64,000 nucleotides of DNA from Bacteroidales bacterium. GTDB taxonomy: Bacteria > Bacteroidota > Bacteroidia > Bacteroidales > JAAYJT01. The notes under the pieces are model-generated. The model did no database searches, was not told the origin of the DNA, and saw only the letters and a list, made by a program, of their open reading frames with translations. Positions 20,248-51,549 of the stretch are shown in pieces; the first letter of the stretch is position 1, and each line of letters opens with the position of its first letter. The stretch spans positions 64,513-128,512 of the forward strand of contig JBASHR010000069.1 in assembly GCA_049654165.1 (NCBI GenBank), given 5' to 3'. Both the position numbers and the translations under genes were made by a program.

Positions 20248-20353
20248 AAAAGGACAGTTGACCTTTTACACAGCCCGATTGATCGTTTGGTAGATAAAAA
20301 AACAGAAATAAATAAAATCGGTAAAAAGTTATAACTTTGTACGGGTATTTATT
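20248..20353 (+). repeat. Repeated promoter-bearing module, copy A (51-nt conserved 5' block + TAACTTTG core)
   Basis: aaaggacagttgaccttttacacaGcccGattgatcgtttggTagataaaa, then an A/T spacer, then ataactttgtAcgggtatttatt. The 5' block matches copy B at 48 of 51 positions. Confidence 0.85.
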
Positions 20354-20399
20354 TGTGCAAGTATTTATAAGTTATGGGGTATAGTGAAAACAGAAATCT

Positions 20400-21215
20400 A
20401 TGACATTACATGAAGCAATAAAAAAGGTTTTAAAGGAAAATGGAAGGCCTTTAAAGCCAATTGAAATAGCATCAATCCTGAATGATAGCAAAATCTATCA
20501 AAAAGGTGATAAGAGTAGAATTAAATCATCTCAGATTTCAGCTCGAGTAAATAAGTATCCATCATGTTTCTTCAAAGAAAATGGGTTAATCTATTTGAAT
20601 AATTGGGACTCATCATTAAAAAAAACAAATGAAATTATGCCAAAACATACTATAAAAATAAGAGTTGATTCGAAAGTTACTGATGGAGATATTGAAGAAA
20701 AACTTTTAGCAGCAGGAAACTTTCGACAATATAATGACTTAGATTCCATAACTTTATCTAAAAATGGTTTTTATTGTTTGAGACTTAAGGAAAACTCAAA
20801 ACTACCAGATAGATACCAGCTGATTCTAGATAAACGTAAGTTTAAATATTTATACATTGGAAAAGCTGAAGGACAAAATCTCGGAGAGAGATTAGACCAA
20901 GAAATTGAACATAAAGGTCCAGGAACTTTTTTTAGAAGTATCGGTTGTGTATTAGAATATTTGCCAATTAAAGGTCATTTAAAAGGACATTCAAATCAAA
21001 ATAATTACAAGTTTTCAACTACAGACACAGCGGAAATTGTGGAATGGTTAATTTCTAATATTGAAATTAGCATTGTTGAGTACAACAGTAGCTTTGAAAT
21101 TGAGAAAGAATTTATCAATAAGTATTGTCCCTTATTGAATTATACTCATAACCCAATGAAATTGCAAGAATTGAAAGAAGATAAAGACAATTGTCGAAAA
21201 ATTGCAAGAGGATAA
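20400..21215 (+). CDS. HARE-HTH domain / GIY-YIG-like nuclease fusion protein
   Basis: The N-terminus 'TLHEAIKKVLKENGRPLKPIEIASIL' is HARE-HTH-like. The C-terminus has the GIY-YIG pattern 'GFYCL...YLYIGKA...LGERL...EKEFINKYCPLLN'. Confidence 0.6.
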   Translation: MTLHEAIKKVLKENGRPLKPIEIASILNDSKIYQKGDKSRIKSSQISARVNKYPSCFFKENGLIYLNNWDSSLKKTNEIMPKHTIKIRVDSKVTDGDIEEKLLAAGNFRQYNDLDSITLSKNGFYCLRLKENSKLPDRYQLILDKRKFKYLYIGKAEGQNLGERLDQEIEHKGPGTFFRSIGCVLEYLPIKGHLKGHSNQNNYKFSTTDTAEIVEWLISNIEISIVEYNSSFEIEKEFINKYCPLLNYTHNPMKLQELKEDKDNCRKIARG

Positions 21216-21449
21216 AGAAATACATGTGATAACAAAGTGTAGTAACAATAAGGGTTTCAAAGGTAAATTAAGCCTCCTATATTACTCAAACTTCGATGGT
21301 GGTTAACAATTTTGCAGCCCGTAATCCCTTTCTTTTGCTACACTCAACCGTAACAATCAAGCCTAAAAAAAACAGCGACATAATGAAAATTGACAAGAAA
21401 AAATATAAAGACAGAACAAAAAGCCAAATCAAACGAAATCCGACAACAT

Positions 21450-21480
21450 TTTGTTGATCGGAAAAAATATACTACTTTTG
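21450..21480 (+). promoter_or_regulatory. Candidate Bacteroidota promoter (-33 TTTG, 19-nt spacer, -7 TACTTTTG)
   Basis: TTTG is at 21450-21453 and TACTTTTG at 21473-21480. This would give a leader of about 270 nt in front of the ATG at 21755. Confidence 0.5.
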
Positions 21481-21568
21481 ATTTTGAATTAATTAAAACG
21501 AATTTTATGACATAAGAAACCTTAATTTAAAAATATAGAAGCGTTAGCTTTTATTCTGAGATTAGAAA

Positions 21569-21702
21569 ACTACCACTTTTCAAACGCATCAGGAATAACA
21601 AGTGAAACGCTCACGCCATGGCGTGGGCTTAACTTATTTGATGCGTGGGTGCGTGGTAGTACCTCTGATCTGAATATAGTTACAGACCCACGCTTCTTTT
21701 TT
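21569..21702 (+). promoter_or_regulatory. GC-rich structured leader element with an intrinsic terminator (candidate riboregulator/attenuator or small RNA)
   Basis: Nested helices: ACTACCAC (21569-76) with GTGGTAGT (21653-60), and ACGCATCA (21584-91) with TGATGCGT (21639-46). A central hairpin spans 21609-21628 (CACGCCATGGCGTG core). A competing helix pairs GCGTGGGT (21643-50) with ACCCACGC (21686-93), followed by TTCTTTTTT. Confidence 0.5.
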
Positions 21703-21754
21703 ATACTAACCGTCATAGTTGGGTCTGATGTGGCAATCTAAAAACACAATTTTT

Positions 21755-22474
21755 ATGTTTAGCAAATCATTTTTTAAGACAGCCCTTATTGCGGGGCTAA
21801 CGGTGGCAATGGCACAAGGTGCATTTGCACAAAAAACTGCTGATGAGTTAAAAGCAGAAAGAGAAGTATTAAAGTCAGAAATGAACTCAAAAGAAGCAAA
21901 AAAATTAGAGAAAGTTCTCGAAAAAATTGCACCTATTGGTGGCACAATGGCAGATTTTGTAACAACAGTGTTAAATCCTTCATTAGCATCAGTTCCAGAA
22001 ATTCAAAGGAAAGCTGTTCCTTCGGTTGCAAAACTCGTTGGTAATGAACCTGCCAGAATCGTAAATAAACCTGCTGCAACAAGGCTTAACTCTGTTGATG
22101 GGCTTGTAGATGCAGGCACAACATTGCTTGGTGTTGTAGTTTCAACCAATGCCGTGTTGTCAAAGTACAAAATCGCGATCACTGAAAGTAAAGATGGCGA
22201 AGTTGATATTACACAATACAAAGCAAATTTGGACGATTACATTGCTATTCTTCCAATGCTGGTGCAAGCAGACATTGATGCTACAAAAGCAGTTGAAAAA
22301 ATCAAATATGCTCAAGCCGATCTCAAAGGATTGAATCCTATACAGGCAGCTCCAACTATTAAAGCGTCTAATTGGGCTATTGACGCAGTAAATGTCAGTG
22401 TGTGGAAAATTGCAGAAAACACCAAATTACTGCAGAATCTTATCAACAGTATTAAAGTAGCAGGTAATTTGTAA
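21755..22474 (+). CDS. Exported all-helical protein of unknown function (operon gene 1)
   Basis: The signal peptide 'MFSKSFFKTALIAGLTVAMAQGAFAQ' is followed by a coiled, Lys/Glu-rich N-terminus and the central hydrophobic segment 'GTTLLGVVVSTNAVL'. I trimmed the start from the track's 21719. Confidence 0.6.
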   Translation: MFSKSFFKTALIAGLTVAMAQGAFAQKTADELKAEREVLKSEMNSKEAKKLEKVLEKIAPIGGTMADFVTTVLNPSLASVPEIQRKAVPSVAKLVGNEPARIVNKPAATRLNSVDGLVDAGTTLLGVVVSTNAVLSKYKIAITESKDGEVDITQYKANLDDYIAILPMLVQADIDATKAVEKIKYAQADLKGLNPIQAAPTIKASNWAIDAVNVSVWKIAENTKLLQNLINSIKVAGNL

Positions 22475-22475
22475 T

Positions 22476-23294
22476 ATGTTGATTATGAAAAGATCTACAG
22501 TAATCATATTATTGCTTATGGTTAGTCTTTACGGTTGCCCGCAAGCTGATAGTAAACCAGTAATTGTAGTTAATAGATTTTCTTCAGAAGTGGATAATCC
22601 AAGTTTTACAACTTCTGTTCAGGAAAAAGTTTCTCAAATTGTTGTAAATTCAAAACGTTTTACGGTTAGGATGAGTGATGAAGAAGCAAAAGACGAAGTT
22701 GAAACAAGGAAATCTGAAATTTACCTTGATAATAGTGAGAATCTTGCCGATTTGAAATTGTCGGCATATCAATTCCGTATTATCGGACATTTGATAAAAG
22801 CGAATATCTACAGAATGAAAAACCCTGATGGAAGCGTAAACGGATTTAAAGCAAGTTGTGCTTTTACGCTGAAAGTCAATGATGTGGAAAGAGGGCAAAC
22901 TACTGAAGCTGAAAGTTTTCAAACCGAAGTCAGTCCGTTGGCGGCATCAAAAGAACAGGCAATAAACCAAGCATTGCAATCTATAGAGCCAAAATTGAAG
23001 TCTTATTTTATAAAAACTTTTCCATTAACAACAAAAATTGTAAAGTTTTTGGATAATAAAAAATGTTTGATTTCAGGCGGAAAAAGTTTTGGGTTCAGAG
23101 AGGGCGATAAATTGATGGTTGAACGTATTGAAATGCTTAACGGAAAGCCCTATCCTATCGAAATAGGCGAATTGAAAATTATAAAAATTGCAGGCGATGA
23201 CTTTTCAGAATGCAGTGTTTCAAAAGGTAGTAAAGAAATTTTGGCAGCATTTAACACAGCTGAAAAGTTGAATTGTAAATTAATTGTAAAATAG
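22476..23294 (+). CDS. Lipoprotein of unknown function with a CsgG/LpoB-like N-terminal pattern and an SH3-like C-terminus (operon gene 2)
   Basis: It has the lipobox 'SLYGC'. 'KPVIVVNRFSSEV...VNSKRFTVR' resembles the first strand-helix-strand of CsgG/LpoB-type lipoproteins. An alternative start is at 22488. Confidence 0.6.
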   Translation: MLIMKRSTVIILLLMVSLYGCPQADSKPVIVVNRFSSEVDNPSFTTSVQEKVSQIVVNSKRFTVRMSDEEAKDEVETRKSEIYLDNSENLADLKLSAYQFRIIGHLIKANIYRMKNPDGSVNGFKASCAFTLKVNDVERGQTTEAESFQTEVSPLAASKEQAINQALQSIEPKLKSYFIKTFPLTTKIVKFLDNKKCLISGGKSFGFREGDKLMVERIEMLNGKPYPIEIGELKIIKIAGDDFSECSVSKGSKEILAAFNTAEKLNCKLIVK

Positions 23295-23300
23295 TTAAAT

Positions 23301-23762
23301 ATGAAACAATTAGTAAAATTATTTTTAGTCGGAGTTTCCATTATTTTGTTTGTAAATTCTTGTCGAACAATTTATCCTTCAGCTGAAGTCAATTATTTGT
23401 CGGGCGATGAGCAAACGCTTACCGTTCGTTCCGTAGGGGTTGACATTGATAAAGAAAAAGCAATTATCAATGCTGAACAAAAAGTGTTTGATGTTCTGTT
23501 CTTTAGAGGCTTACCCGAATCAAAACAAAAAATACCGTTAATCAGCAGCAACGAGCATGAAGAAATATCAAATCACAAGAATTATTTTGATAGTTTTTAC
23601 GATGGAAAACGACATAAAACATTTGTAATGTCGTCAATTCCTGTAAGTAACGTAAAAGCTAGGGGTAGACAAAAAATAGTTACGCTCGACGTAAAAGTTA
23701 ATTTGTCGGCACTGCGGCACGATTTGGAAACCTTCGGGGTTATCAGAAAATTTGGTTATTAA
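23301..23762 (+). CDS. Small lipoprotein of unknown function (operon gene 3)
   Basis: It has the lipobox 'FVNSC' and is 153 aa. Confidence 0.6.
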   Translation: MKQLVKLFLVGVSIILFVNSCRTIYPSAEVNYLSGDEQTLTVRSVGVDIDKEKAIINAEQKVFDVLFFRGLPESKQKIPLISSNEHEEISNHKNYFDSFYDGKRHKTFVMSSIPVSNVKARGRQKIVTLDVKVNLSALRHDLETFGVIRKFGY

Positions 23763-23783
23763 CCCAATAAATAGAGGAAATTT

Positions 23784-24674
23784 ATGAGAAAAATACAAAT
23801 AGTAACATTTTTATTGCTTGCGGTAGGTTCTGTTCTCGGACAAAACGTAGCCACAAACAGCGATGGACAAGTTGTAACTGTTCAGCCCAAAATAATGGTC
23901 ATTCCATTTACTAAAGAAAGAGAAGATATCAGGACAATTTTGGAGGAGGATGTTAACCGAAGAATTGCAATTGCTAAAATAAAAGAAGGTTTTGACAGTC
24001 GAGGTTTCACAACCGTTGATTTTGTTGCCAGACTCAAAATTGCAAAAGACAATAATGTTTTCACTTCCGATAATCAGACGGATATTAAAACGCAAATTGT
24101 AGAAATGTCGGGAGCTGATGTGTACGTACAATCCGAAGTAATTATAGAAAAAGGTCAATCGGGTAATTCGGTAAAGCTGATTCTTGCTGCCTATGAAATT
24201 TCTACAGGTAATTCGCTGTCGAACAAAGTAGGCGAAAGCGGACGTTTTTACACAGACGATTTCAATAAGTTGGCATCAAAAGCTGTAGAAAGCTGCATAG
24301 AGGATTTTTTGAACATCATGCAAACGAAATTTACGGACATTGTGAATAACGGAAAATCTATTTTGATTGACATCAGCTTCGATCCTTCTTCGTTGTTTAC
24401 GATGTCGTCGGAAGTTGGAAGTGATGGTTTACCGCTTTCCGACCAAATAGAAATGTGGATGAGCGAAAATGCTCTTAAAGGGAATTATCATATTCAGGGA
24501 ACTACGAATTTAAAAATGTTGTTCGATGATGTGCGTATTCCGCTCAAAGACAGCAATGGAAATAATTATAATCCCAATAAATTCGGACTAGAAATGTATA
24601 AATTCTTCAGAACGTTAGGAATTTCAATAGGCAGAGACATTAAAGGCAATACTATTTATATAACAATAAAATAG
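23784..24674 (+). CDS. Exported protein of unknown function (operon gene 4)
   Basis: It has a signal peptide ('LLLAVGSVLGQ'), and 'PKIMVIPFTKE' directly follows the mature N-terminus. It may belong to a Bacteroidota-only DUF family (unverified). Confidence 0.6.
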   Translation: MRKIQIVTFLLLAVGSVLGQNVATNSDGQVVTVQPKIMVIPFTKEREDIRTILEEDVNRRIAIAKIKEGFDSRGFTTVDFVARLKIAKDNNVFTSDNQTDIKTQIVEMSGADVYVQSEVIIEKGQSGNSVKLILAAYEISTGNSLSNKVGESGRFYTDDFNKLASKAVESCIEDFLNIMQTKFTDIVNNGKSILIDISFDPSSLFTMSSEVGSDGLPLSDQIEMWMSENALKGNYHIQGTTNLKMLFDDVRIPLKDSNGNNYNPNKFGLEMYKFFRTLGISIGRDIKGNTIYITIK

Positions 24675-24681
24675 AGACAAC

Positions 24682-25626
24682 ATGAAAACAATTTATTTTA
24701 TAGTAATCGCAATGATTTTGGCTTCTACTTCAGTTGCCCAATCAATAAGCGATTTGGGAAAAATTACCCTATCGGTTGTAATGCCTGAAAATGTTGATGG
24801 TTTGGATATTTCGCAACTTTCTAAACTGGAGACTAAAATCTCTCAAATTGTTACCGTATCTGGTTTAGCAGCATCAGGTTATAATAATAATTTTGTCATT
24901 TACCCCAAGTTTGCAATTTATGAAAATAATATAGTTGAAGGAGGTATGCAAAAAATTACTGTTTTTACAGCAGAATTAAGTTTGTTCATTAAACAAGTTG
25001 AAAATAATTTATTATTCTCTACAATTAGTAAACAACTCAAAGGAAGTGGAAGCAATAAAGAACAGGCAATTACAAACGCTATCTCTAAAATTCCAATAAA
25101 CGATACCGAATTTAAAATCTTTATTGAAACAGGAAAATCTGAAATTATCCGGTACTATGAAACAAAGTGCGAGGACATTATTAAAAAATCTGACAGTTAC
25201 GTTAAAATGCAGCAGTATGACCAAGCATTGGGATTATTAATGACTGTTCCTGAAGAAGTATCAAGTTGCTACAATCAGATTCAGGGTAAAGCAATTGAGG
25301 CATATAAAGCTTATCAAACACAAAAATGTGCCGAGTTAATTCAAAAAGCAAAGACCACGCTTGCTGGTAATGATTATGCTGGGGCATTAAACATTTTATC
25401 AGATATTGATCCTTCCGCTTCGTGCTTCAATGAAGCACAAGCATTAGCAAAAACAGCCGAAACAAAAGTTGATGCCGAAGAAAAAAAACAATGGGATTTT
25501 CAGATGAAACAGTATAGTGATGCTGTTAGTCTGGAAAAACAGCGTATTAATGCAATAAAAGAAATAGCGGTTTCTTATTACAAAAGTCAACCTACGACAG
25601 TCAATTATAATTATATCATAAGGTAG
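24682..25626 (+). CDS. Exported protein of unknown function with a Cys-containing helical-repeat C-terminus (operon gene 5)
   Basis: The signal peptide is 'IAMILASTSVAQS'. 'ITLSVVMPENV' starts the mature part. The C-terminal half is helical and TPR-like, with five Cys residues. Confidence 0.6.
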   Translation: MKTIYFIVIAMILASTSVAQSISDLGKITLSVVMPENVDGLDISQLSKLETKISQIVTVSGLAASGYNNNFVIYPKFAIYENNIVEGGMQKITVFTAELSLFIKQVENNLLFSTISKQLKGSGSNKEQAITNAISKIPINDTEFKIFIETGKSEIIRYYETKCEDIIKKSDSYVKMQQYDQALGLLMTVPEEVSSCYNQIQGKAIEAYKAYQTQKCAELIQKAKTTLAGNDYAGALNILSDIDPSASCFNEAQALAKTAETKVDAEEKKQWDFQMKQYSDAVSLEKQRINAIKEIAVSYYKSQPTTVNYNYIIR

Positions 25627-25731: not shown

Positions 25732-25832
25732 AAAGGACAGTTGACCTTTTACACATCCCTATTGATCGTTTGGCAGATAAAATTAAAAAGACAAAACCAA
25801 CAAAAATTGATAACTTTGTTCGGGTATTTATT
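25732..25832 (+). repeat. Repeated promoter-bearing module, copy B
   Basis: aaaggacagttgaccttttacacaTcccTattgatcgtttggCagataaaa, then a spacer, then ataactttgtTcgggtatttatt. Confidence 0.85.
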
Positions 25833-25873
25833 GGTTACTGGTCAGGTTACTGCAAACTCTAAAACACAAGATA

Positions 25874-26605: not shown

Positions 26606-27294
26606 TGAACCCACGACAATTTGAAGAATTAGTTTGTGAGTATTTTCGCAAACAAGGTTACGAGGCCAAAACAACTTCATACAGTGGCGACTATGGTATT
26701 GACGTTTTCGCAACAAAAGGAAAAGAGAAAATAGCAGTTCAAGTAAATATGTATGGCGATTCAACAAGAAAAATAAATCGTCAAATGGTAATGGAATTGT
26801 ACGGAGCAAAAGATTATTTTGATTGCACCAAAGCAATTATCGCAACTGACGGAGCATTTTTGCCCGATGCAATTTCTGTTGCAGAGAAATTGAAAATTGA
26901 AATTTTGTATTTCAACGAATTTCAAACACAACTTCCACAAAATCAATCACTAAAAAGCCGCAAGACAGATAAAACTTTTGAACAAATTTGGGAAGACTAC
27001 ATAATTCCACTTCAAGGAAAAACACTAACGAGAAGTAACGGTAAAACAAATAAAATAATCAAGGTAGATTGGAGTGGAATTGAACGGCTGACATCAAACG
27101 GTAATAAAGGAAAAATCAAAATTGAAATATTCAAACAAGCCGTAAACAAACTTTTAACTAATGGTTCAATTAGCCGTGATTACATCAATCAAAACTACGT
27201 CGGACGAGCATCTTCGGGAATTGTGCTAATTTTATCACAAGTTCCGTTCTTTACACTAACTGACAGACCAACAGGATTGAAATATGAAATGTAA
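26605..27294 (+). CDS. Mrr-like (PD-(D/E)xK) restriction endonuclease domain protein with an uncharacterised C-terminal domain
   Basis: 'FEELVCEYFRKQGY', 'GDYGIDVFA' and 'IAVQVNMY' match the Mrr_cat layout. The start ATG overlaps the upstream stop by 1 nt (TAATG). Confidence 0.65.
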   Translation: MNPRQFEELVCEYFRKQGYEAKTTSYSGDYGIDVFATKGKEKIAVQVNMYGDSTRKINRQMVMELYGAKDYFDCTKAIIATDGAFLPDAISVAEKLKIEILYFNEFQTQLPQNQSLKSRKTDKTFEQIWEDYIIPLQGKTLTRSNGKTNKIIKVDWSGIERLTSNGNKGKIKIEIFKQAVNKLLTNGSISRDYINQNYVGRASSGIVLILSQVPFFTLTDRPTGLKYEM

Positions 27295-27306
27295 CGATAA
27301 AAAGCT

Positions 27307-27329
27307 ATAACTTTGTGCGGGTATTTATT
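27307..27329 (+). repeat. Repeated promoter module, copy C (3' core only)
   Basis: ataactttgtGcgggtatttatt is identical to copies A and B except at one position. Confidence 0.8.
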
Positions 27330-27395
27330 AGTTAATGACAAATTTAAGATTACGACTTGCAATAACTCAAATTTAATAACCAAAAAAATGTAATT

Positions 27396-43653: not shown

Positions 43654-46600
43654 CTATTGTTTGATCAGTTTTTCAATACTTGTCTGCTTGCCGCTAAGTA
43701 TGCGTATAATATACACTCCCTTAGGACTGCCTGACAGATCAAACTCATACTGGTTCTGGCCAAAAACCTGTGTTTGCAGTACTCTTTCACCCATCAAACC
43801 AAATATCTCAACATTGATCACCGAAGCTTCATCAGCTTCTTTCATCAACAATGTGAAGCGTCCGGTAGTAGGATTCGGATATACTGTGAACATTGCATCC
43901 ATTTCTGCCGGAGTAATAACAGCAGGTGCAATTTCTTCAGATTTAGCTGTAACCATGGTAGCAGCTTGTTCGCAATATGTAATTTCATCCATAATAGTGG
44001 CAAGGAAATTAGCACCCTGAGCTACATGAACACCTACGCCAAGTACAATATTCTGACCGGCATACAAGTATGCTACAGCACCTTCTTCAATTTCAAAGTC
44101 AGTAGCAACAATGCTCACTTCAGCTCTGAACTCAGTATTAGTTCCTTCTTCAACCTGAGCATTGTCAATTGTCAGCATTCCAAGTCCATCATAGCAATCG
44201 TCTTCAAGTACACCGGAATAAGTTGGATTCTCAGGTGGACCAGTTTGTATTGCTTTGAATTCAAAGTCATCAAAACTAATATACCACGGCGTACTTGTTG
44301 AATTGATCCTAATTGCAAAATAGTAAATACCATCAGCATCAGGTACAAATGTATGTAAGAACTGAGCATATGTTTTTGTAGTGGTTGTCCCACTGGTAAC
44401 AAATGATGTTCCTACCTGAGTTGCGCCGGTTGATATTTGTGATGTATTCACAAATACATCCCCGGTCCAACCAGCATAATTATCGCCAGCCCACCAGAAT
44501 GAAAACTCATATGTTTTTCCGGCCTGAACAGCGAAACCAGGTGTCCAGATATATGAGTTTGTTGAACCCCAAGGTGCCCGTAAAAACTGGGTCCCGGTTC
44601 TAGCATCAGCATCATATGTTGAGCTTGCATTATTGGTGGTAACCCAACTACCACTTTCCTTGAACCAGCAATTGGGGAATGCAGGAATAGTTACATTTTC
44701 AAAACTTTCTGTCCATGGGAAAATAGAAATTGCTTCACAAAGTGTTGCAAAAGTCATCTTCACTGACCAAGCACTAACATCTCCCTCACCACAGTCTGCT
44801 TGAACGCTGAATGCATAAGCTGTACTTGAATTAAGACCTTCAAGAAGGAAAGGATTAGTTGTAATACCAGAAATCAATGTACCTCCCGTTTCAGGGTTAA
44901 ATCCCGGCTCACCATACTTAATATTCCATTTTGTTTCATTTCCTCCAGGAGTCCAACCCAAAACTGCACTGGTTGCAGTTATATCTGAAACAGTTAAAGC
45001 AGTTGGAGCGGGACATGTAGGAGCAAAATCAATAAGAATATCATCAACGCAAAGATAATTCATATCTGCATTACTATATCCGTGCCAACCAACATAATAT
45101 ACTCCGGTTTCTACAGGAGTAAATGCAGCAGTTGCCAATGCATAAACTGTATTTGTAATGTTAGCATTATTCCAGATCTGTCCACCTGTCATTCCTGCTG
45201 CATTTGGAGCTGTTCCCCATTTAACCTCAAGTTTTTCAGGCCAGGTGGTGCTACTACCACGATAATAGAATTCAACTATATAAGTCTTTCCACCGATAAG
45301 ATTTAATCCCGGAGTAAAGAACCAGTCATCCATAGCTAAACTTGTATTATACAAGATGTACATACAATTTGGCGTTGATTTTGGATATGAAGTGGATGTT
45401 ACCCATAATCTAATATCACCATTATCATTAGTAACTGTCATGCAATCAGGAATAGCTGGTGCTGTAACGCCATCAAAGTTCTGAACGTAAGGTATATCTT
45501 CCGTACCGCAAGGTGTTTTAAAGGCTTTTGTTACCGACCATGTACTAACGTCGCCACCGCCACAATCAGCCTGAACCATAAATGCATAATTAGTATTTGA
45601 GGTCAGACCAGTAACCGGATAGGGTTTGGTAATGTTGTTAGCGAAAACAGTATCACCTACTCCAACCTTATAATATTTAAGATTCCATGTAGTTTCGCCA
45701 AATCCGGGAACCCAGTCAAATTCAGCACTTGTGGCTGTGATATCAGAAACAGTAAGATTGGTTGGTGTCGGGCAAAGCGGCAGAGTAGTGAATTTCTTGG
45801 GTCCAGCCCATACACTCCTGGTTTTAGGTATACTTTCATGAACAATAATGCCCCAACCTGTTGCATTTACATCCCAATATTCATCCAGGCCTATGTTTGA
45901 AACAGGTTTTGGTGTATTTGATGTATTAGCTATCTTGATATTTATTCCACTGATACCAACCGAGATCCATTCAGGGTTATAATCAGGAATATCGAATTCC
46001 AGTTCAAACCATTGTTTATTCTGTCCACTAGCTGTAACAGTATAAGATCCGTTTAAAGGCGATCTCCGGATGAATTCTTCATCATTCGGAGTTGGAAATC
46101 CAGGTGTTTGCGGATCCCATTCAGGTGTAGTATAACTTACACAATAACTTATATAGGCTGGTGCTAATCCAACAATCTTCTGAACATAAAAGCCCATCTT
46201 AATTTTATTCATGTTCCAGCTATCAAGTGGACTATTATAGAACCATATACTACGTATAGTATCATTGTAAGTACCCCACGTTCCGTCTTCTCCAGGTTCA
46301 TTGGCAGTACCACCACTGTTGGCAGAATCTATGTCACCATTCGATTTAATTTGTAGCCAGAATCTGTTAACTTTTGGTGTATCAAATTCGGCTTCACCGC
46401 AATCAGCCTGTACATAGAACCAATAATCTGTTTCGGGCTGAAGGTCTTCAATAAATAGCGGATTATCCTCAATGCCCTCAAAGCTATCGTATGGATCAAT
46501 TGCACCACCTATTTCAAACTCATCATCATCAGCTATTATAACATTGAAAACTGACGCATCACCCACCGGTGTCCATCCAAGGTTAAAAGCTGTAGGATTG

Positions 46601-49600
46601 ACCAGAGTAGCTGTAAGATCAACAGGTTTGGGACATAGTGGAGCCAGGGTCATAGTAACGGGAATATTTACAGGTTGTTTGGATATAACCCGCCCGTCAT
46701 GAGTAAGAAGTATATTGCAATTGTGAGTACCTTCATCAACTAAGTTGCTGTTAAAAATAACATCAATATCACTACTTGCGGCAGGTGGTACAACACCTGT
46801 GTATGAGCCAAGTGTCAGCCAGGAATCACCCCCAACAAGGCACATGCTTAAAGCATATGCACCTACTGTTACTGTAAAGTTTTCTTCATCGAATTGCAGG
46901 TAAGGTGTTCCCTGATCTAAAGAGCCTGCCCACATAAACCAGCAATCAGGATCAGAGGTTTGACCCTGAATAGCAACCCAACCACTTGATAAGTATAACG
47001 GCTTATCAATTTCGAGGTGATACATATATAAATTACCATAAGAGCCAAGCGCAATACCAGTATTTACCCTGTTGATTGTGGGATTGAAAGATGCTACAAA
47101 ATCACCTGGGAATCCATCATTATCAGTGTAAAATTGAATTACAAAAGGCATTGGATCCTCATTGCTACATGCGCTCCAGGCACCAGTATAAATCAAATTC
47201 CCGCCCCAGAAGGTAAGCCCGGTTATAGGTGCGTTAGCTCCGGAAAAATACTGCATTGCAAAATATCCGGGAGCTTCTTCTGAAGTAACTAATTTCCAAC
47301 TGATTGTATCAGGAAGTTGACTAAAAATTGAACCTTCAGGGCATGTTGTAAATACTTTTGCCGATCTGTTACCGTGGTTATACGAACCGCTTAAGGATGC
47401 GTCTTCAACACTCTTTTCAACAATATTTCTGCTAAATTCAAAATGTTTGTTCAGTGAACCCCGCTCTTCATCCAGATAACCAGTAATTACAGCATTCCAG
47501 GTTAAAGGTCCTGTTCCGCCAGGATTTGAAATTGTAAGCTCTTCAATTTTCTGACCCGGCTTATTAAATTCAACTTCAAAGCTTTCAGGACTAACGCTGA
47601 TTTCTGCATAATCAAGTACAAAATTCAGAGTATTGGTTATCCCTCCAACGATCTCAAAATCTTCTTCCAGTTTTGTGAGAAAAGTTTCAGCTTCACATGT
47701 AATATCATAAAATCCTGCCGGTATTCCTGTTATTTCATAATCTCCATTTTCATCAGTAAAGGCTATTTGATATATACTTTCACTTAATAAAGTCATTTTG
47801 GCTCCTTCAACTGGCCCACGGGCGCCACTGACATTACCGGCTAAACTACCCGGCACAAAACTCTCTACTAATACATTGTCAATAAACCAACCATCTATAT
47901 TAAACGAATAACCGTAAAATGTAAATGCCAGTTTAAAATCAACTGTGCCGACAGGTAATGTGAATGTCAGATTTTCAGGCTGAGGTCCGACATCTCCGGT
48001 AAAGAAATTTTTATAAATAATATTCCATGTTTGACCAAGATCAACAGAGTACTCCACAGCAATATATGCGCCTGTATATGCTGCATAATAAGCTAAAAGA
48101 TGATCAAAAGATATTTTAAAATCACTGGCGCCACCTGTAGCTAATCCAGGAGTTACCAATCTGGTTGTACCTGTAAAGCTTGGGCTCCAGTATAATCTCA
48201 TTTCAGGAGCCGGACCACCGGCATTTATAGAATTCTGAACACTCCAACTATTTTGTCCAAGCCCCATAACTGACCAGCAATCCGGTAATGTTCCGATAGT
48301 TACTCCGGTAAAATCCTCTGCAAATGGTAAAGGAAATGCTGCACATTCGGTTACAAATGAAACAGGACCTGCCCAAGGACTATTATCTCCATTACAATTA
48401 GCCTGTACATATACTTGATATTGTGTACTTGAACTTAAACCTGTAATAGTATAACTATTTGTTGTTATGTTTTCAACAAGGGTTCCTTCTGTTTCAGGGT
48501 CAAAACCTGCTTCACCATATAATAAATTCCACATTTCTTCATCACCGCCTGGAGTCCAGCTAATTTTTGCACTGGTTGCAGTTATATTAGAAACAACCAG
48601 ATTTTTAGGAGCTATACAACTTGGTGTTGGTTCAAACCTAAAATCATCAAAACTAAGATACCAGGGAATGCCCGTAGCATTTATCCTTATTGCAAAATAA
48701 TAAATACCATCCTGATTAGGGATAAACGAATGTAAAAATTGAGCGTATGTTTTTGTAGTTGTTGTTCCACTTGTTACAAATGACGTTCCTATCTGGGTAG
48801 CGCCGGTTGATATTTGTGATGTATTCACAAACACATCACCTGTCCAACCTGAATAAGTATCACCAGCCCACCAGAATGAAAAATCGTACGATATTCCTGA
48901 ATACAATTGGAAACCGGGTGTCCACATAAATTCATTAGTAGCAGAATATGACTCACGAAGGAATTGAGTTCCGGTTCTGGCATCAGCATCATAGGTTGAA
49001 TTTGCATTATTGGTAGTTACCCAATCGCCATTTTCTTTAAACCAACAATCGGGAAAAGCAGGAATGACAACACCTTCAAAACTTTCAGTCCATGGGAATG
49101 TAGATATCGGAGTGCATAATGTTTTAAAATTCTTCTTTGCTGACCATTCGCTTATATCATCTTCACCACAAACAGCCTGAACATAAACATCATAATTCGT
49201 GTTTGGATCTAACCCTTCAAGAAGAAAGGGATTTGTATCAATGTCTTCTACCAATGTTCCTTCTGTTTCAGGGTCAAAACCTGCTTCACCATATAATAAA
49301 TTCCACATTTCTTCATCACCGCCCGGAGTCCAGTTAATTTTTGCACTATTTTGAGTGATATCTGTAACTATCAGATCTGTAGGAGCTGCACAACTTGGAA
49401 TTTCCTCAAAAACAATATGATCAATAAATACATTATTACCATAACCACTTACACCTTCAAAAATGATATATGAATTGGTTTTTTCTTTGTTTTGCGGAAT
49501 ATTAAAAACATAATTATACCATCCTGCTGAAGGTACAACTGGTGCCAATGTGGTTGACCTGTTAATTGTTCCAAGTAAGGTACCACCAACAGAAGTAGCT

Positions 49601-51549
49601 GAGGTATTATAATATATGTTTACTAAATCGGCATTGGAGGGGTAGCCAGTGTCTCTGTACATCCAGAATGATACTCTGTAATTATTATCAGGGAAATTTA
49701 TAGGCGGGGAGATTAATTCACCCTTGGTACCGCTGGTATAACCGTAATTATTATATCTTGCCATCCCCGCGCCACTGTAAGGATAACATGTTGGATAAGT
49801 TCCACTGGTTTGTCTGTCCCAGGTACCTGTTCCGCCTCCTCCAGTTTTTATATTTGTCCATCCTAAAGGAGGAAATGTAGCATTATCGAAACTTTGCACA
49901 TGAGGAAAAGTTGATATTGTTGGATTCTGCATGACTGTAAATGATCTTACTTCACTCAATGTTTCGCCGGCACCATTATAAGCTCCAATCCTCCAGTAAT
50001 AGGTAGTTGAGAAATCCAATTCTGGTGAAACTGTATAAGGAGAGGCAGTAACATCAGCCCATTCAAAAGTTGGAGTTACTGTGGTGGCAAGGTAAATTTT
50101 ATAACCCTGTGGGATCCCACCTGTGGCAGCGGGAGTCCATGAAAGCTGAACAGTTGGTTGTATATCTACTGCTCCATCGGCTGGTGCTGAAAGCGTAACA
50201 GGATCAGGAATTATTGGCGTGATTTCCGGTCCAAACACTTGATCAATGTAAATACTGCCTGAAGATCCGACATAATAAACTGAAAAGGCGAGGTAATAAT
50301 TTGATTTTGCTCCTGCAAGCGAGCCCAAATCCACACTATAGTATGCAAACGGCGCATTGCTTGCAAGCTCTATCACATTGCCGATATTGTTCCATGTAAT
50401 CCGGTCTGTTGAGTATTTTATCTGTATCCTCTGAGAGGTGTTTGCAGTTGCTGTTCGTGCATAAAACTCCAATTTACTTGTGGGTGTAATTGTGAGTAAA
50501 GGAGTTGTAAGAAGATTTTCAGTAGTTGAAGTAAATTTATAGGCAGAAGCCACGCCATGTTGGAAATAGGTTGTTGACCGGCTGAAAGAACCGGGATTTG
50601 TCCAACCTAAAGGTGGAAAAGTTGTTGATTCAAAACTCTCAGCAAGCTGAGTAACTGTAGGGGTTCTAAAGCTCCAGACAGGACAGCCTACTGCAGCTCC
50701 GATACTATTACGTGGAACAATCTGCCAGTAATAGGTTTGTCCGGCTGCCAAAGCAGGTGTATAAGAAGTACCAGGCTGATTCTGAATAAATGCAGGAGGA
50801 TTGCTTGTACCAAAATACACATCATAAGATGTGGGAGTTCCACCACCACTCTGCCATATTAGAAGTTGATTGGTATAAACAGTTGTATTATCAACAGGAG
50901 CGATTAATACAGCACAGTTTGGAGGTGTGGTTGGTACATAGGCAGCCATATCAAACTGAACCTGAGCTATTGTAGCAGTTGGTCCAGTTTTAGCAATCGG
51001 AGGTGAGGCAGGATTAGGATTGGTATTATCATCGTAATACATAATTCCTCTGTTTGTTCCTGCATTATACGAACGCCAGGCGGCAGTACAACTGTAACTG
51101 GCAGAATTTTCATCCACAGCAACTACAAGATTCCCTCCCGTATAATTGAAAGGTGTGGGCAAGGTAATTTCAATCCAGTTCCCTGCAACAGGTGTTGGAA
51201 TATCACCTGAAAAAACCTGTGTCAATGCAGCCAAAGGTATCCAGTCAGTCGTACTGGTAAAAACAGATTTACTTGTATTACCCAAATAAATTGTCCAATC
51301 AGACCAGGTTGAATAGCTAGTACCTCCTGATGAATAAAAAAATCTTACTTTGGTAATAGGACCAATTCCTCCACCAGCATCGCTGATTTCTCCTGCTAAA
51401 TAGATTTGCTGACTGTAACTGTAGTTGTAACAGGAATAGATTGGGAAGTAGCTTGTTGTTGTAGTACCTGACCCAATCTGTACATCCACTGAATACAGGC
51501 TGAATGACCATAACAGCATTGTTGTAATGAACAGTAATAACTTTTTCAT
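43654..51549 (-). CDS. Giant (2631 aa) T9SS-secreted multidomain surface protein (FN3-like and choice-of-anchor-J/MAM-like beta-sandwich repeats, CarboxypepD_reg-like domain, T9SS C-terminal sorting domain)
   Basis: It has a signal peptide and at least five FN3-like units of the pattern 'CPxPTxLTVSDITATSA...W.PGG.E..WN..YG...Y...VQA.CG'. It ends in the T9SS CTD 'FTVYPNPTTGRFTL...PKGVYIIRILSGKQTSIEKLIKQ'. Confidence 0.85.
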   Translation of the reverse strand: MKKLLLFITTMLLWSFSLYSVDVQIGSGTTTTSYFPIYSCYNYSYSQQIYLAGEISDAGGGIGPITKVRFFYSSGGTSYSTWSDWTIYLGNTSKSVFTSTTDWIPLAALTQVFSGDIPTPVAGNWIEITLPTPFNYTGGNLVVAVDENSASYSCTAAWRSYNAGTNRGIMYYDDNTNPNPASPPIAKTGPTATIAQVQFDMAAYVPTTPPNCAVLIAPVDNTTVYTNQLLIWQSGGGTPTSYDVYFGTSNPPAFIQNQPGTSYTPALAAGQTYYWQIVPRNSIGAAVGCPVWSFRTPTVTQLAESFESTTFPPLGWTNPGSFSRSTTYFQHGVASAYKFTSTTENLLTTPLLTITPTSKLEFYARTATANTSQRIQIKYSTDRITWNNIGNVIELASNAPFAYYSVDLGSLAGAKSNYYLAFSVYYVGSSGSIYIDQVFGPEITPIIPDPVTLSAPADGAVDIQPTVQLSWTPAATGGIPQGYKIYLATTVTPTFEWADVTASPYTVSPELDFSTTYYWRIGAYNGAGETLSEVRSFTVMQNPTISTFPHVQSFDNATFPPLGWTNIKTGGGGTGTWDRQTSGTYPTCYPYSGAGMARYNNYGYTSGTKGELISPPINFPDNNYRVSFWMYRDTGYPSNADLVNIYYNTSATSVGGTLLGTINRSTTLAPVVPSAGWYNYVFNIPQNKEKTNSYIIFEGVSGYGNNVFIDHIVFEEIPSCAAPTDLIVTDITQNSAKINWTPGGDEEMWNLLYGEAGFDPETEGTLVEDIDTNPFLLEGLDPNTNYDVYVQAVCGEDDISEWSAKKNFKTLCTPISTFPWTESFEGVVIPAFPDCWFKENGDWVTTNNANSTYDADARTGTQFLRESYSATNEFMWTPGFQLYSGISYDFSFWWAGDTYSGWTGDVFVNTSQISTGATQIGTSFVTSGTTTTKTYAQFLHSFIPNQDGIYYFAIRINATGIPWYLSFDDFRFEPTPSCIAPKNLVVSNITATSAKISWTPGGDEEMWNLLYGEAGFDPETEGTLVENITTNSYTITGLSSSTQYQVYVQANCNGDNSPWAGPVSFVTECAAFPLPFAEDFTGVTIGTLPDCWSVMGLGQNSWSVQNSINAGGPAPEMRLYWSPSFTGTTRLVTPGLATGGASDFKISFDHLLAYYAAYTGAYIAVEYSVDLGQTWNIIYKNFFTGDVGPQPENLTFTLPVGTVDFKLAFTFYGYSFNIDGWFIDNVLVESFVPGSLAGNVSGARGPVEGAKMTLLSESIYQIAFTDENGDYEITGIPAGFYDITCEAETFLTKLEEDFEIVGGITNTLNFVLDYAEISVSPESFEVEFNKPGQKIEELTISNPGGTGPLTWNAVITGYLDEERGSLNKHFEFSRNIVEKSVEDASLSGSYNHGNRSAKVFTTCPEGSIFSQLPDTISWKLVTSEEAPGYFAMQYFSGANAPITGLTFWGGNLIYTGAWSACSNEDPMPFVIQFYTDNDGFPGDFVASFNPTINRVNTGIALGSYGNLYMYHLEIDKPLYLSSGWVAIQGQTSDPDCWFMWAGSLDQGTPYLQFDEENFTVTVGAYALSMCLVGGDSWLTLGSYTGVVPPAASSDIDVIFNSNLVDEGTHNCNILLTHDGRVISKQPVNIPVTMTLAPLCPKPVDLTATLVNPTAFNLGWTPVGDASVFNVIIADDDEFEIGGAIDPYDSFEGIEDNPLFIEDLQPETDYWFYVQADCGEAEFDTPKVNRFWLQIKSNGDIDSANSGGTANEPGEDGTWGTYNDTIRSIWFYNSPLDSWNMNKIKMGFYVQKIVGLAPAYISYCVSYTTPEWDPQTPGFPTPNDEEFIRRSPLNGSYTVTASGQNKQWFELEFDIPDYNPEWISVGISGINIKIANTSNTPKPVSNIGLDEYWDVNATGWGIIVHESIPKTRSVWAGPKKFTTLPLCPTPTNLTVSDITATSAEFDWVPGFGETTWNLKYYKVGVGDTVFANNITKPYPVTGLTSNTNYAFMVQADCGGGDVSTWSVTKAFKTPCGTEDIPYVQNFDGVTAPAIPDCMTVTNDNGDIRLWVTSTSYPKSTPNCMYILYNTSLAMDDWFFTPGLNLIGGKTYIVEFYYRGSSTTWPEKLEVKWGTAPNAAGMTGGQIWNNANITNTVYALATAAFTPVETGVYYVGWHGYSNADMNYLCVDDILIDFAPTCPAPTALTVSDITATSAVLGWTPGGNETKWNIKYGEPGFNPETGGTLISGITTNPFLLEGLNSSTAYAFSVQADCGEGDVSAWSVKMTFATLCEAISIFPWTESFENVTIPAFPNCWFKESGSWVTTNNASSTYDADARTGTQFLRAPWGSTNSYIWTPGFAVQAGKTYEFSFWWAGDNYAGWTGDVFVNTSQISTGATQVGTSFVTSGTTTTKTYAQFLHTFVPDADGIYYFAIRINSTSTPWYISFDDFEFKAIQTGPPENPTYSGVLEDDCYDGLGMLTIDNAQVEEGTNTEFRAEVSIVATDFEIEEGAVAYLYAGQNIVLGVGVHVAQGANFLATIMDEITYCEQAATMVTAKSEEIAPAVITPAEMDAMFTVYPNPTTGRFTLLMKEADEASVINVEIFGLMGERVLQTQVFGQNQYEFDLSGSPKGVYIIRILSGKQTSIEKLIKQ

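Follow-up and report, generated by a model that had tools for sequence, protein, structure and literature searches.

What role does a long, GC-rich and strongly structured leader play ahead of an operon of exported proteins in a Bacteroidales genome? The leader in question lies at positions 21450–21754 of a 64,000-nucleotide (nt) stretch of contig JBASHR010000069.1 (hereafter the window), where a promoter is followed by a cis leader on the + strand. A first-pass annotation of this DNA had proposed a riboswitch, an attenuator, a T-box-like switch or a small RNA with its own terminator. Here, we find that the region is a real, conserved + strand RNA belonging to a family of folded leaders of roughly 170 nt, which, judging from comparative sequence analysis, probably gates the transcription of accessory genes. 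We lean, with about even confidence, toward a portable attenuator-type leader of a family unmatched in Rfam 15, in which promoter, RNA and cargo gene would together form a cassette.

The Bacteroidota-type promoter is present as first described (21450–21480, + strand), with a −33 TTTG at 21450–53, a 19-nt spacer and a −7 box, TACTTTTG, at 21473–80. With transcription taken to start near 21487 and the first operon ATG at 21755–57, the leader measures ~268 nt. The GC-rich block reported within this otherwise A/T-rich leader is borne out, GC content being 42–48% across 21550–21700 as opposed to 22–30% in the flanks. The two nested helices within it are exact, ACTACCAC (21569–76) being fully complementary to GTGGTAGT (21653–60) and ACGCATCA (21584–91) to TGATGCGT (21639–46). 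The perfect palindrome CACGCCATGGCGTG is found at 21612–25, and GCGTGG occurs three times within 36 nt (at 21621, 21643 and 21651). Folding of 21487–21754 gave a minimum free energy (MFE) of −72.8 kcal/mol, compared with −49.7 ± 4.3 for dinucleotide shuffles (z = −5.4), and none of 200 shuffles folded as well.

The RNA opens with an A/U-rich 5’ extension (21487–21534, + strand) that is ~80–100% identical in close homologues and carries a conserved GACAUAAGAA at 21509–18. It is followed by a hairpin, P0 (21535–21554), formed by AUAGAAGC (21535–42), a GUUA loop and GCUUUUAU (21547–54), and containing an element that we term X (AGAAGCGU, 21537–44). The bulk of the molecule is a rod, a long imperfect hairpin (21552–21676) defined by folds and by covariation across 56 sequences. 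From base to tip it comprises UAUUC/GAAUA (21552–56 with 21672–76), P3 (21559–66 with 21664–71), P4 (21569–76 with 21653–60), P5 (21584–91 with 21639–46), P6 (21600–03 with 21632–35) and the central hairpin P7 (21609–16 with 21621–28). The rod is a near-continuous duplex whose largest internal loops are ≤ ~7 nt, and among its conserved internal loops and bulges are a GGAAUAA bulge and, where P3 meets P4, GAAA/ACC. The 3’ arm of the central hairpin (GCGUGGGC, 21621–28) and its flank make up the C region (GCGUGGGCUUAACU, 21621–34), and two further GCGUGG copies (21643–48 and 21651–56) lie in the rod 3’ strand only in a subgroup consisting of the window and two related loci, L043 and L019.

Beyond the rod lies the T region (21678–21702), with AGUUA at 21678–82, CAGACCCA at 21683–90, ACGCUUCU at 21690–97 and the U-rich UUCUUUUUU at 21694–21702. 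A last hairpin, gamma (21710–21733), pairs CCGUCAU (21710–16) with AUGUGG (21728–33) in a stem identified by eye only, and holds in its loop the segment D (UGGGUCUG, 21720–27), the downstream partner of CAGACCCA.

Is this structure conserved? Relatives of the 239-aa protein encoded by the first gene of the operon form a small Bacteroidota family, and we took their loci (numbered L001 onward) from genomes and metagenomes. In L043 and L019 the leader is 83% and 78% identical at the DNA level, with downstream proteins only 36% and 31% identical. A covariance model, R1, built from five close sequences then recovered distant members, leading to a final alignment of 56 distinct sequences and a 42-pair model. 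In this alignment 92.1% of cells were paired compared with 67.1% after shuffling, and none of 500 shuffles matched; since the alignments used to count pairs were fitted to the model structure, these pairing percentages are inflated, a point against our interpretation.

Compensatory changes on both sides were found at 38 of the 42 pairs, the covariation score was 0.665 versus 0.213, and moving the partner by 1–3 columns left pairing at just 33–43%. The rod helices are 87–95% paired, and all pairs of P3, P4 and P5 vary on both sides, with 3–5 pair types at each position; for example, ACUACCAC/GUGGUAGU in the window is replaced by AUCGCCAG/CUGGCGAU and CUUCGAC/GUCGAAG in relatives. P0 has 89% of its cells paired and 7 of its 8 pairs changed on both sides (one pair being AU in 27 sequences and UA in 17), and folding the 5’ half alone with RNAalifold yielded no other conserved helix. 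Conservation of the helices in homologous leaders, which the first-pass annotation had regarded as decisive, is evident in all rod helices as compensatory change. Pairs of the rod contain 59 G·U against 19 A·C, and the promoter, U-tract and downstream genes all lie on the same + strand as the RNA.

The most constrained part of the family is its 3’ element. CCCACGC (T3) is nearly invariant, as is GCGUGGGC, and the element has several conserved and mutually exclusive partners: GCGUGGGC in the rod, X (AGAAGCGU) in P0, and UGGGUCUG downstream. Its family-wide complement is GCGUGGGC in the 3’ arm of the central hairpin. In the window this duplex, C:T3, joins GCGUGGGCUUAACU (21621–34) to AGUUACAGACCCACGC (21678–93) at −17.4 kcal/mol. 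Cognate duplexes from 14 lineages averaged −15.4 compared with −11.8 kcal/mol for non-cognate ones (permutation p < 5e-5), and the 7-bp core was 92–100% paired in 53 sequences. Its flanks change together, as in GCAUGGGU/AUCCAUGC, CGCGGGCG/CGCUCGCG, GCGUGAGCUU/GAGUUCACGC and GCGUGGAAU/GUUCCACGC. The 5’ arm of P7 drifts from C to U, creating many U·G wobbles, while C:T3 remains Watson-Crick, indicating that the alternative duplex is preserved and the local hairpin is free to weaken.

A second pairing, alpha, joins X (21537–44) to the tail ACGCUUCU (21690–97) and, together with UAGCU/AGUUA, closes the rod; compensatory variants include AAUAGCG/CGCUAUU, AAUUGCG/CGCAAUU and AUUAGCG/CGCAAAU. The third, beta, joins CAGACCCA to UGGGUCUG, with D located 14–24 nt past the U-tract. 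Cognate beta pairings were more stable than non-cognate ones both in 25 members (−8.5 versus −5.9 kcal/mol) and in a separate set of 44 (−6.95 versus −5.72 kcal/mol; p < 5e-5 in each), and examples include AAGUGCCA/UGGCACUU, GAGUACCA/UGGUAC and UGUCCC/GGGAC(G). Beta corresponds to the further alternative pairing first seen in the window between CAGACCCA (21683–90) and TGGGTCTG (21720–27), which is indeed conserved and covarying.

A different helix had initially been cast as the terminator stem, GCGTGGGT (21643–50) with ACCCACGC (21686–93) followed by TTCTTTTTT (21694–21702). The complementarity is real, and so is its incompatibility with the inner nested helix, as 21643–50 overlaps the strand at 21639–46, but the helix is confined to the window, L043 and L019 subgroup and is not a family-wide feature. 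Nor did we retain X:tail as a universal terminator stem: L005, L010, L098, L130 and L137 support it well, as does the window subgroup, and it is marginal in the phage set described below.

Of 47 distinct members, 44 have at least 6 U among the 9 nt following CCCACGC. Some members carry canonical local terminators that can be read directly from their sequence, GCGAGAAAC-GGUUAA-GUUUCACGC-U7 in L008 and GCAUGG-9 nt-CCAUGC-U7 in L087, and nested thermodynamic models support local pairing of T3 in both. In the window, CCCACGC and UUCUUUUUU are present and conserved, and the candidate partners are distant (21537–44, 21621–34 and 21643–50), forming no compact hairpin. A simple terminator scan calls no terminator at this leader, where the stem partners lie far apart with a loop of >8 nt. 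Of 19 members, 13 have an exact TAnnTTTG box 17–107 nt before the RNA, and none of the 19 has an exact −7 box within 120 nt after the U-tract; nor was one found between the U-tract and the ATG in the window.

We compared the competing structures energetically. For window RNA ending at the U-tract, the alpha-closed rod is the MFE structure (−63.6 kcal/mol), compared with −56.7 for P0 plus rod, −50.6 for a forced C:T3 core (~13 above the MFE) and −48.9 for the forced 21643–50/21686–93 helix. In the growing chain, P0 is present up to 21690, alpha is present from 21694 to 21720 while the U-tract is made, and P0 together with beta is back at 21728 and at full length (−78.4 versus −74.9 kcal/mol).

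We propose a model in which a duplex on CCCACGC, contributed by GCGUGGGC or X as the polymerase makes the U-tract, would stop transcription and leave a ~215-nt RNA. With GCGUGGGC locked in the rod and AGAAGCGU locked in P0, the polymerase would instead read through; the downstream segment of the read-through transcript could then capture CAGACCCA, the neighbour of CCCACGC, and the operon would be transcribed. What survives of the first-pass proposal is thus a conserved, structured + strand leader with its own promoter and mutually exclusive helices, in which a GC-rich element is followed by a U-rich tract; the T-box is not supported, and a classical metabolite riboswitch is unlikely.

Besides the inflated pairing percentages, several observations weigh against this model. 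The probability of C:T3 is ~0 in nested thermodynamic models of all 15 members tested, since the rod is far more stable, and we accordingly rejected C:T3 as an equilibrium nested structure; a kinetic route, a loop-tail pseudoknot, pairing in trans or a factor would be required. A two-hairpin fold that would permit C:T3 through an alternative hairpin in the 5’ half was likewise rejected, as RNAalifold shows only P0 there. In the large phage set, X:tail pairing is weak (7.9 versus 7.7 pairs of 10, p = 0.02) and X covaries with its P0 partner instead; the downstream partner is transcribed too late for a classical antiterminator. Some members have interrupted or short U-tracts, Bacteroides phage Versailles has CACGCUUUCGUG with no U-run, and a set of compact relatives (described below) has no clean U-run. 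Termination at 21702 is itself a prediction, and the sequence is compatible with either direction of switching, default on or default off.

Leaders with terminator/antiterminator alternatives are a familiar kind of element. Attenuators whose antiterminators are stabilized by a protein, of the BglG/LicT (RAT-terminator), PyrR and HutP types, are similarly promoter-proximal and combine a GC-rich element and U-tract with a partner that another conserved structure can sequester. As the RAT hairpin overlaps an arm of the terminator, so P0 overlaps X, which is able to pair with the terminator tail. The leader described here differs from them in having no sequence or Rfam similarity, a sequestering rod of ~115 nt rather than a small hairpin, three conserved partners for the 3’ element, no linked gene for an RNA-binding protein, and unrelated cargo. 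The lambda PR’–tR’ leader (194-nt ‘lambda 6S’) and the put/nut systems are alike in placing a constitutive promoter, a ~170–220-nt leader and a terminator-like end before phage genes. Unlike in lambda, we identified no Q-like, N-like or NusG-like factor, the conserved part is an RNA structure and not a DNA qut site, and single accessory genes and a chromosomal operon are also found behind the rod RNA.

Where else does this RNA occur? It is not specific to the lipoprotein operon, and the same RNA precedes many other genes. A blastn search against GenBank phages located it in an unverified gut phage scaffold, before a gene for a 215-aa protein and an OLD-family nuclease, with primase and helicase genes adjoining. 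Three rounds of pattern searching in IMG/VR, with R1 as a filter, yielded 4 matches and then at least 63 more, in 61 of the first 79 loci. Overall, gut viral and mobile contigs gave at least 69 matches and at least 45 distinct sequences. Carriers comprise Bacteroidales chromosomes, prophages and conjugative elements. Near the copies lie genes for integrases, terminases and tail proteins, and also a reverse transcriptase accompanied by an RT-17 RNA, a combination that marks diversity-generating retroelements; in L235 the RNA, a small gene, a DUF5675 gene and the large terminase subunit follow in that order.

The start codon of the cargo lies 7–111 nt downstream of the RNA, mostly 20–60 nt, and the gene is always co-oriented. 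Cargo includes an Mrr_N/Mrr_cat endonuclease, an HSDR_N protein, RteC, an N6/N4 DNA methylase, an OLD-family nuclease operon, a weakly Lar-like protein, a TPR membrane protein, a lipoprotein and proteins of 70–90 aa. The unrelated cargo, taken with two sequence-invariant 8-mers, suggests that the shared input would be a trans-acting factor (a protein or another RNA copy) rather than a metabolite.

A named isolate among the carriers, Bacteroides phage Versailles, has one copy in its lysogeny module, between regulator genes and the integrase. This copy (L278 3496–3668, equivalent to ON453897.1 2855–3028, minus strand) is overlapped nearly exactly by a coding sequence annotated as a hypothetical protein (WAK79110.1, 2847–3017), which is probably a spurious open reading frame (ORF) call. 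Rfam RT-17 matches were found at L208 1918–2014 and L160 11045–11142; the former lies at the start of the reverse-transcriptase ORF, so that in this prophage the rod RNA coexists with a reverse-transcriptase module. Two contigs carry two copies each, L214 (1748–1913 and 2319–2486) and L235 (344–507 and 9712–9875), and those in L214 are tandem cassettes of RNA plus small gene (88 aa, then 70 aa).

The family, its three-partner architecture and the portable cassette on Bacteroidales mobile elements appear to be undescribed within the libraries searched. In the window, Rfam 15 gave no match at the gathering threshold, in agreement with the earlier reading that no known riboswitch class could be recognized, and at E ≤ 10 the interval 21200–21900 returned only Leu_leader, with 13.6 bits against a gathering threshold of 50. 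Scans of 20 chromosomal loci found only DUF805, DUF805b, tRNA and Flavo-1, none of them at the rod RNA, and scans of 13 phage loci found only RT-17, elsewhere on the contigs. We also found no such leader described among the results listed for a literature search on Hankyphage, terminators and morons. No tRNA, transfer-messenger RNA or integration-site fragment was found.

Few Bacteroidota cis-regulatory RNAs are understood, and the control of accessory genes in gut Bacteroides prophages and conjugative elements is largely unknown. The RNA described here is large, strongly supported by covariation and abundant in human-gut viral contigs, where it is currently unannotated or, as in Versailles, mis-annotated; a covariance model in public RNA family databases is merited and would remove spurious ORF calls. 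Were it a conditional terminator, it would offer a testable handle on lysogenic conversion and defense-gene expression in a dominant gut phylum, and a ready regulatory part for Bacteroides engineering.

A more speculative extension, which we consider quite improbable, is that the RNA represents a regulatory class not described before, borne by mobile elements and serving as a standard ‘expression gate’ before accessory, defense and anti-defense genes, with the invariant 8-mers GCGUGGGC and GCCCACGC as a common address. If so, a single factor, or else terminated RNAs made from other copies, would act on all these cassettes of a cell at once, and Bacteroidales phages, conjugative elements and genomic islands would be the carriers of genes switched by inducing or preventing termination.

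The invariance of the C and T3 blocks can also be read differently, with the terminated rod as a stable trans-acting small RNA, its ends paired, of the immunity or cross-talk type known from P4 CI and P1 c4. GCGUGGGC would pair with the CCCACGC of nascent leaders and terminate them, and cargo would be expressed through leaky read-through. A shared trans partner would explain why C and T3 stay invariant while other helices covary, and pairing in trans would suit a duplex that is unable to form in cis at equilibrium. The Versailles copy in a lysogeny module and the paired copies in L214 and L235 also fit, as do short-leader members in which a 5’ A-rich tract pairs with the U-tract to close the rod. 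P4 CI (seqA/seqB/seqC) and P1/P7 c4 (a’/b’ and a2/b2), which arise by processing of their own leaders, share the temperate-phage context and short complementary blocks within one leader; pairing upstream of the termination point could end transcription early there as here, and invariant blocks would let copies act on one another. Yet GCGUGGGC is buried in a stable stem of the rod and not exposed in a loop, the 64-kb window contains a single copy, and the RNA always lies directly upstream of a same-strand gene, as is typical of a cis element. It has no Rfam C4 match and is also found on a chromosome and on conjugative elements. We regard a trans-acting RNA as unlikely.

Somewhat less probable in our judgment is that the rod, as a 5’ stem-loop or a site for a double-stranded RNase, would process, stabilize or insulate the mRNA and so even out the expression of any cargo behind it, with the U-tract a mere pseudoknot linker. 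A long, near-continuous duplex and highly diverse cargo would suit such a role, and both Versailles and the compact relatives, which keep alpha, beta and gamma, do without a clean U-run. Against this, 44 of 47 members have the U-rich tract directly behind the GC-rich element, L008 and L087 have canonical local terminators, and a static stabilizer would leave the mutually exclusive conserved helices unexplained.

The leader could instead respond to a small molecule, with the rod as the aptamer of a new riboswitch and CCCACGC plus the U-tract as its expression platform. In favor of this are the conservation of internal loops and bulges, the alternative helices and a logic resembling that of a terminator. 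The same RNA stands, however, before functionally unrelated genes (restriction enzymes, a methylase, RteC, lipoproteins and small phage proteins), which makes a classical metabolite riboswitch unlikely. The RNA is also enriched on prophages and mobile elements and matches no known class, and we consider this explanation very unlikely. A generic metabolite riboswitch is disfavored for want of a functionally coherent gene set downstream, and we rejected a T-box (RF00230) on finding no Rfam match and exported proteins and lipoproteins, or restriction and phage genes, downstream in place of an aminoacyl-tRNA synthetase.

Scarcely credible, finally, is an element acting as DNA (a GCGTGG/CCACGC operator, as the first-pass annotation had suggested from the palindrome and the triple GCGTGG, or a recombination site, single-stranded DNA promoter hairpin, repeat or insertion sequence end), for although mobile-element association and an IS1595 transposase near the copies in L130 and L137 might hint at one, compensatory changes and the sense-strand G·U excess (a template-strand hairpin would give the reverse bias) keep helices that covary freely, and the single copy in the window has no terminal repeats or duplications and no plasmid match. 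A search of PLSDB returned no match for a plasmid element. A known repeat, miniature inverted-repeat transposable element or insertion sequence end, the remaining doubt of the first-pass annotation, was rejected, the RNA having no such match, standing once in 64 kb, lying always co-oriented before a gene and showing RNA-like covariation.

Other classes of RNA were also considered. The 6S RNAs (including Bacteroidales-1 and Flavo-1) resemble the family in being rods of ~170–200 nt with paired 5’ and 3’ ends. They differ in that our RNA has no match to RF00013, RF01693 or RF01705 and no large central bubble, its internal loops being ≤ ~7 nt, and in that it is always placed directly 5’ of a co-oriented gene and occurs on mobile elements; we rejected this identity. 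In L001, from a Taishania metagenome-assembled genome, a Flavo-1 match (2397–2482, 48 bits against a gathering threshold of 42) lies ~400 nt upstream of a DUF805 motif and the operon. A type III toxin-antitoxin RNA was rejected because no direct repeats in the leader appear among the repeat families listed and the cargo is diverse. A leader peptide (AUG-ACA-UAA, 21506–14) was rejected as well, this mini-ORF being kept only in a close subgroup and its AUG being absent in L098, L107, L130, L087 and L005.

The conserved GACAUAAGAA (21509–18) of the 5’ extension is complementary to UUUUUAUGUU (21750–59) across the start codon of the first gene, with 10 pairs including 2 G·U, and the full-length MFE fold pairs these segments. 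An ACAUA motif is found near the 5’ end in most members, and in L008 ACAUAUAA pairs with the start-codon segment UUAUAUGU. Such pairing could act as a translational lock, the signal being weak and A/U-rich. In L002, L003, L035 and L036 the central hairpin carries an inserted stem-loop (CCGUAG...UACGG), and these four loci have an extra gene, whose product begins M-I-R/K-A-E-L-K-A-Q-G, between the leader and the homologue of gene 1; it may be a gene 1 paralogue.

The operon downstream of the window leader (21755–25626, + strand) encodes five exported proteins in a gene order conserved in homologous loci. Gene 1 (21755–22474) encodes the 239-aa protein, with a signal peptide and no Pfam match; genes 2 (22476–23294) and 3 (23301–23762) encode proteins with a lipobox, gene 4 (23784–24674) a DUF6175 protein, and gene 5 (24682–25626) completes the operon. 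Searches of Pfam and NCBIfam for a function yielded only DUF6175 and a weak TPR-like match, and DUF6175 is not mentioned in the full-text literature searched.

In most homologous operons (Flavobacterium and others), the gene 1 ATG is directly preceded by the Rfam DUF805 RNA. DUF805 or DUF805b motifs were found in L001, L016, L017, L024, L027, L058, L091 (1394–1463) and L040 (2921–2955); L091 combines the rod RNA with DUF805, and L040 combines it with DUF805b. These motifs occupy the same site before gene 1 in Flavobacteriia and other Bacteroidota, and differ from the rod RNA in being far smaller and consisting of two short hairpins (35–68 nt), the rod RNA lying upstream of the motif where both occur. 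Judged by a GUGG...CCAC hairpin, a GGC...GCC hairpin and GAGUAGG close before the start codon, DUF805/DUF805b (RF03081/RF02914) was rejected for the window, which has no match even at E ≤ 10. The operon genes that bear the motif do not encode DUF805 proteins, and the literature searched on DUF805 RNA held nothing usable and no function.

The compact relatives, in L068–L079, have a leader of the form AAAGCGU-UAAUUG-CAGCUAU-ACGCUUU-(23 nt)-AUAGCUG-AA-GUGGCAAC, which shares the alpha/beta/gamma layout of the window and has no rod. The window type looks as if this compact core had gained a rod within its alpha loop, along with a stronger U-tract. The compact leader lies ~100 nt upstream of gene 1 (L068, L070, L071, L073, L075 and L078/L079) and its two hairpins, AAAGCGU-loop(CAGCUAU)-ACGCUUU and ACCACUU-loop(AUAGCUG)-AAGUGG-CAAC, have complementary loops in a pseudoknot or kissing layout. 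Its stem covaries, as AGGACGU/ACGCUCCU in L075, and scans of L071 and L073 gave no Rfam match. Upstream of the operon homologue in L095 (~990–1190) are tandem ~23-nt repeats (GGGGGTGTCCCATTTGAGCC and variants) with a run of N between them.

The window copy of the leader is chromosomal, the window encoding PriA, an aminoacyl-tRNA synthetase, RNase E/G, Dus and carboxylases, and it lies within a small accessory island (20.2–28 kb) together with GIY-YIG and Mrr nucleases. Within the window we noted a promoter-like repeat, AAAAAG(T/C)TATAACTTTGTnCGGGTATTTATT, with the −7 box TAACTTTG inside it, at 20249–20356, 25732–25835 and 27282–27332. The first two copies share ~60 nt more upstream, and the three lie ~45–70 nt before the ATGs at 20400 (the GIY-YIG gene), 25874 and 27396, so that the island looks like a set of cassettes sharing one promoter. 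Elsewhere in the window, on the minus strand (43654–51549), an ORF of 2631 aa contains internal, diverged repeats of ~270–300 nt (D1, D2, D6 and D7).

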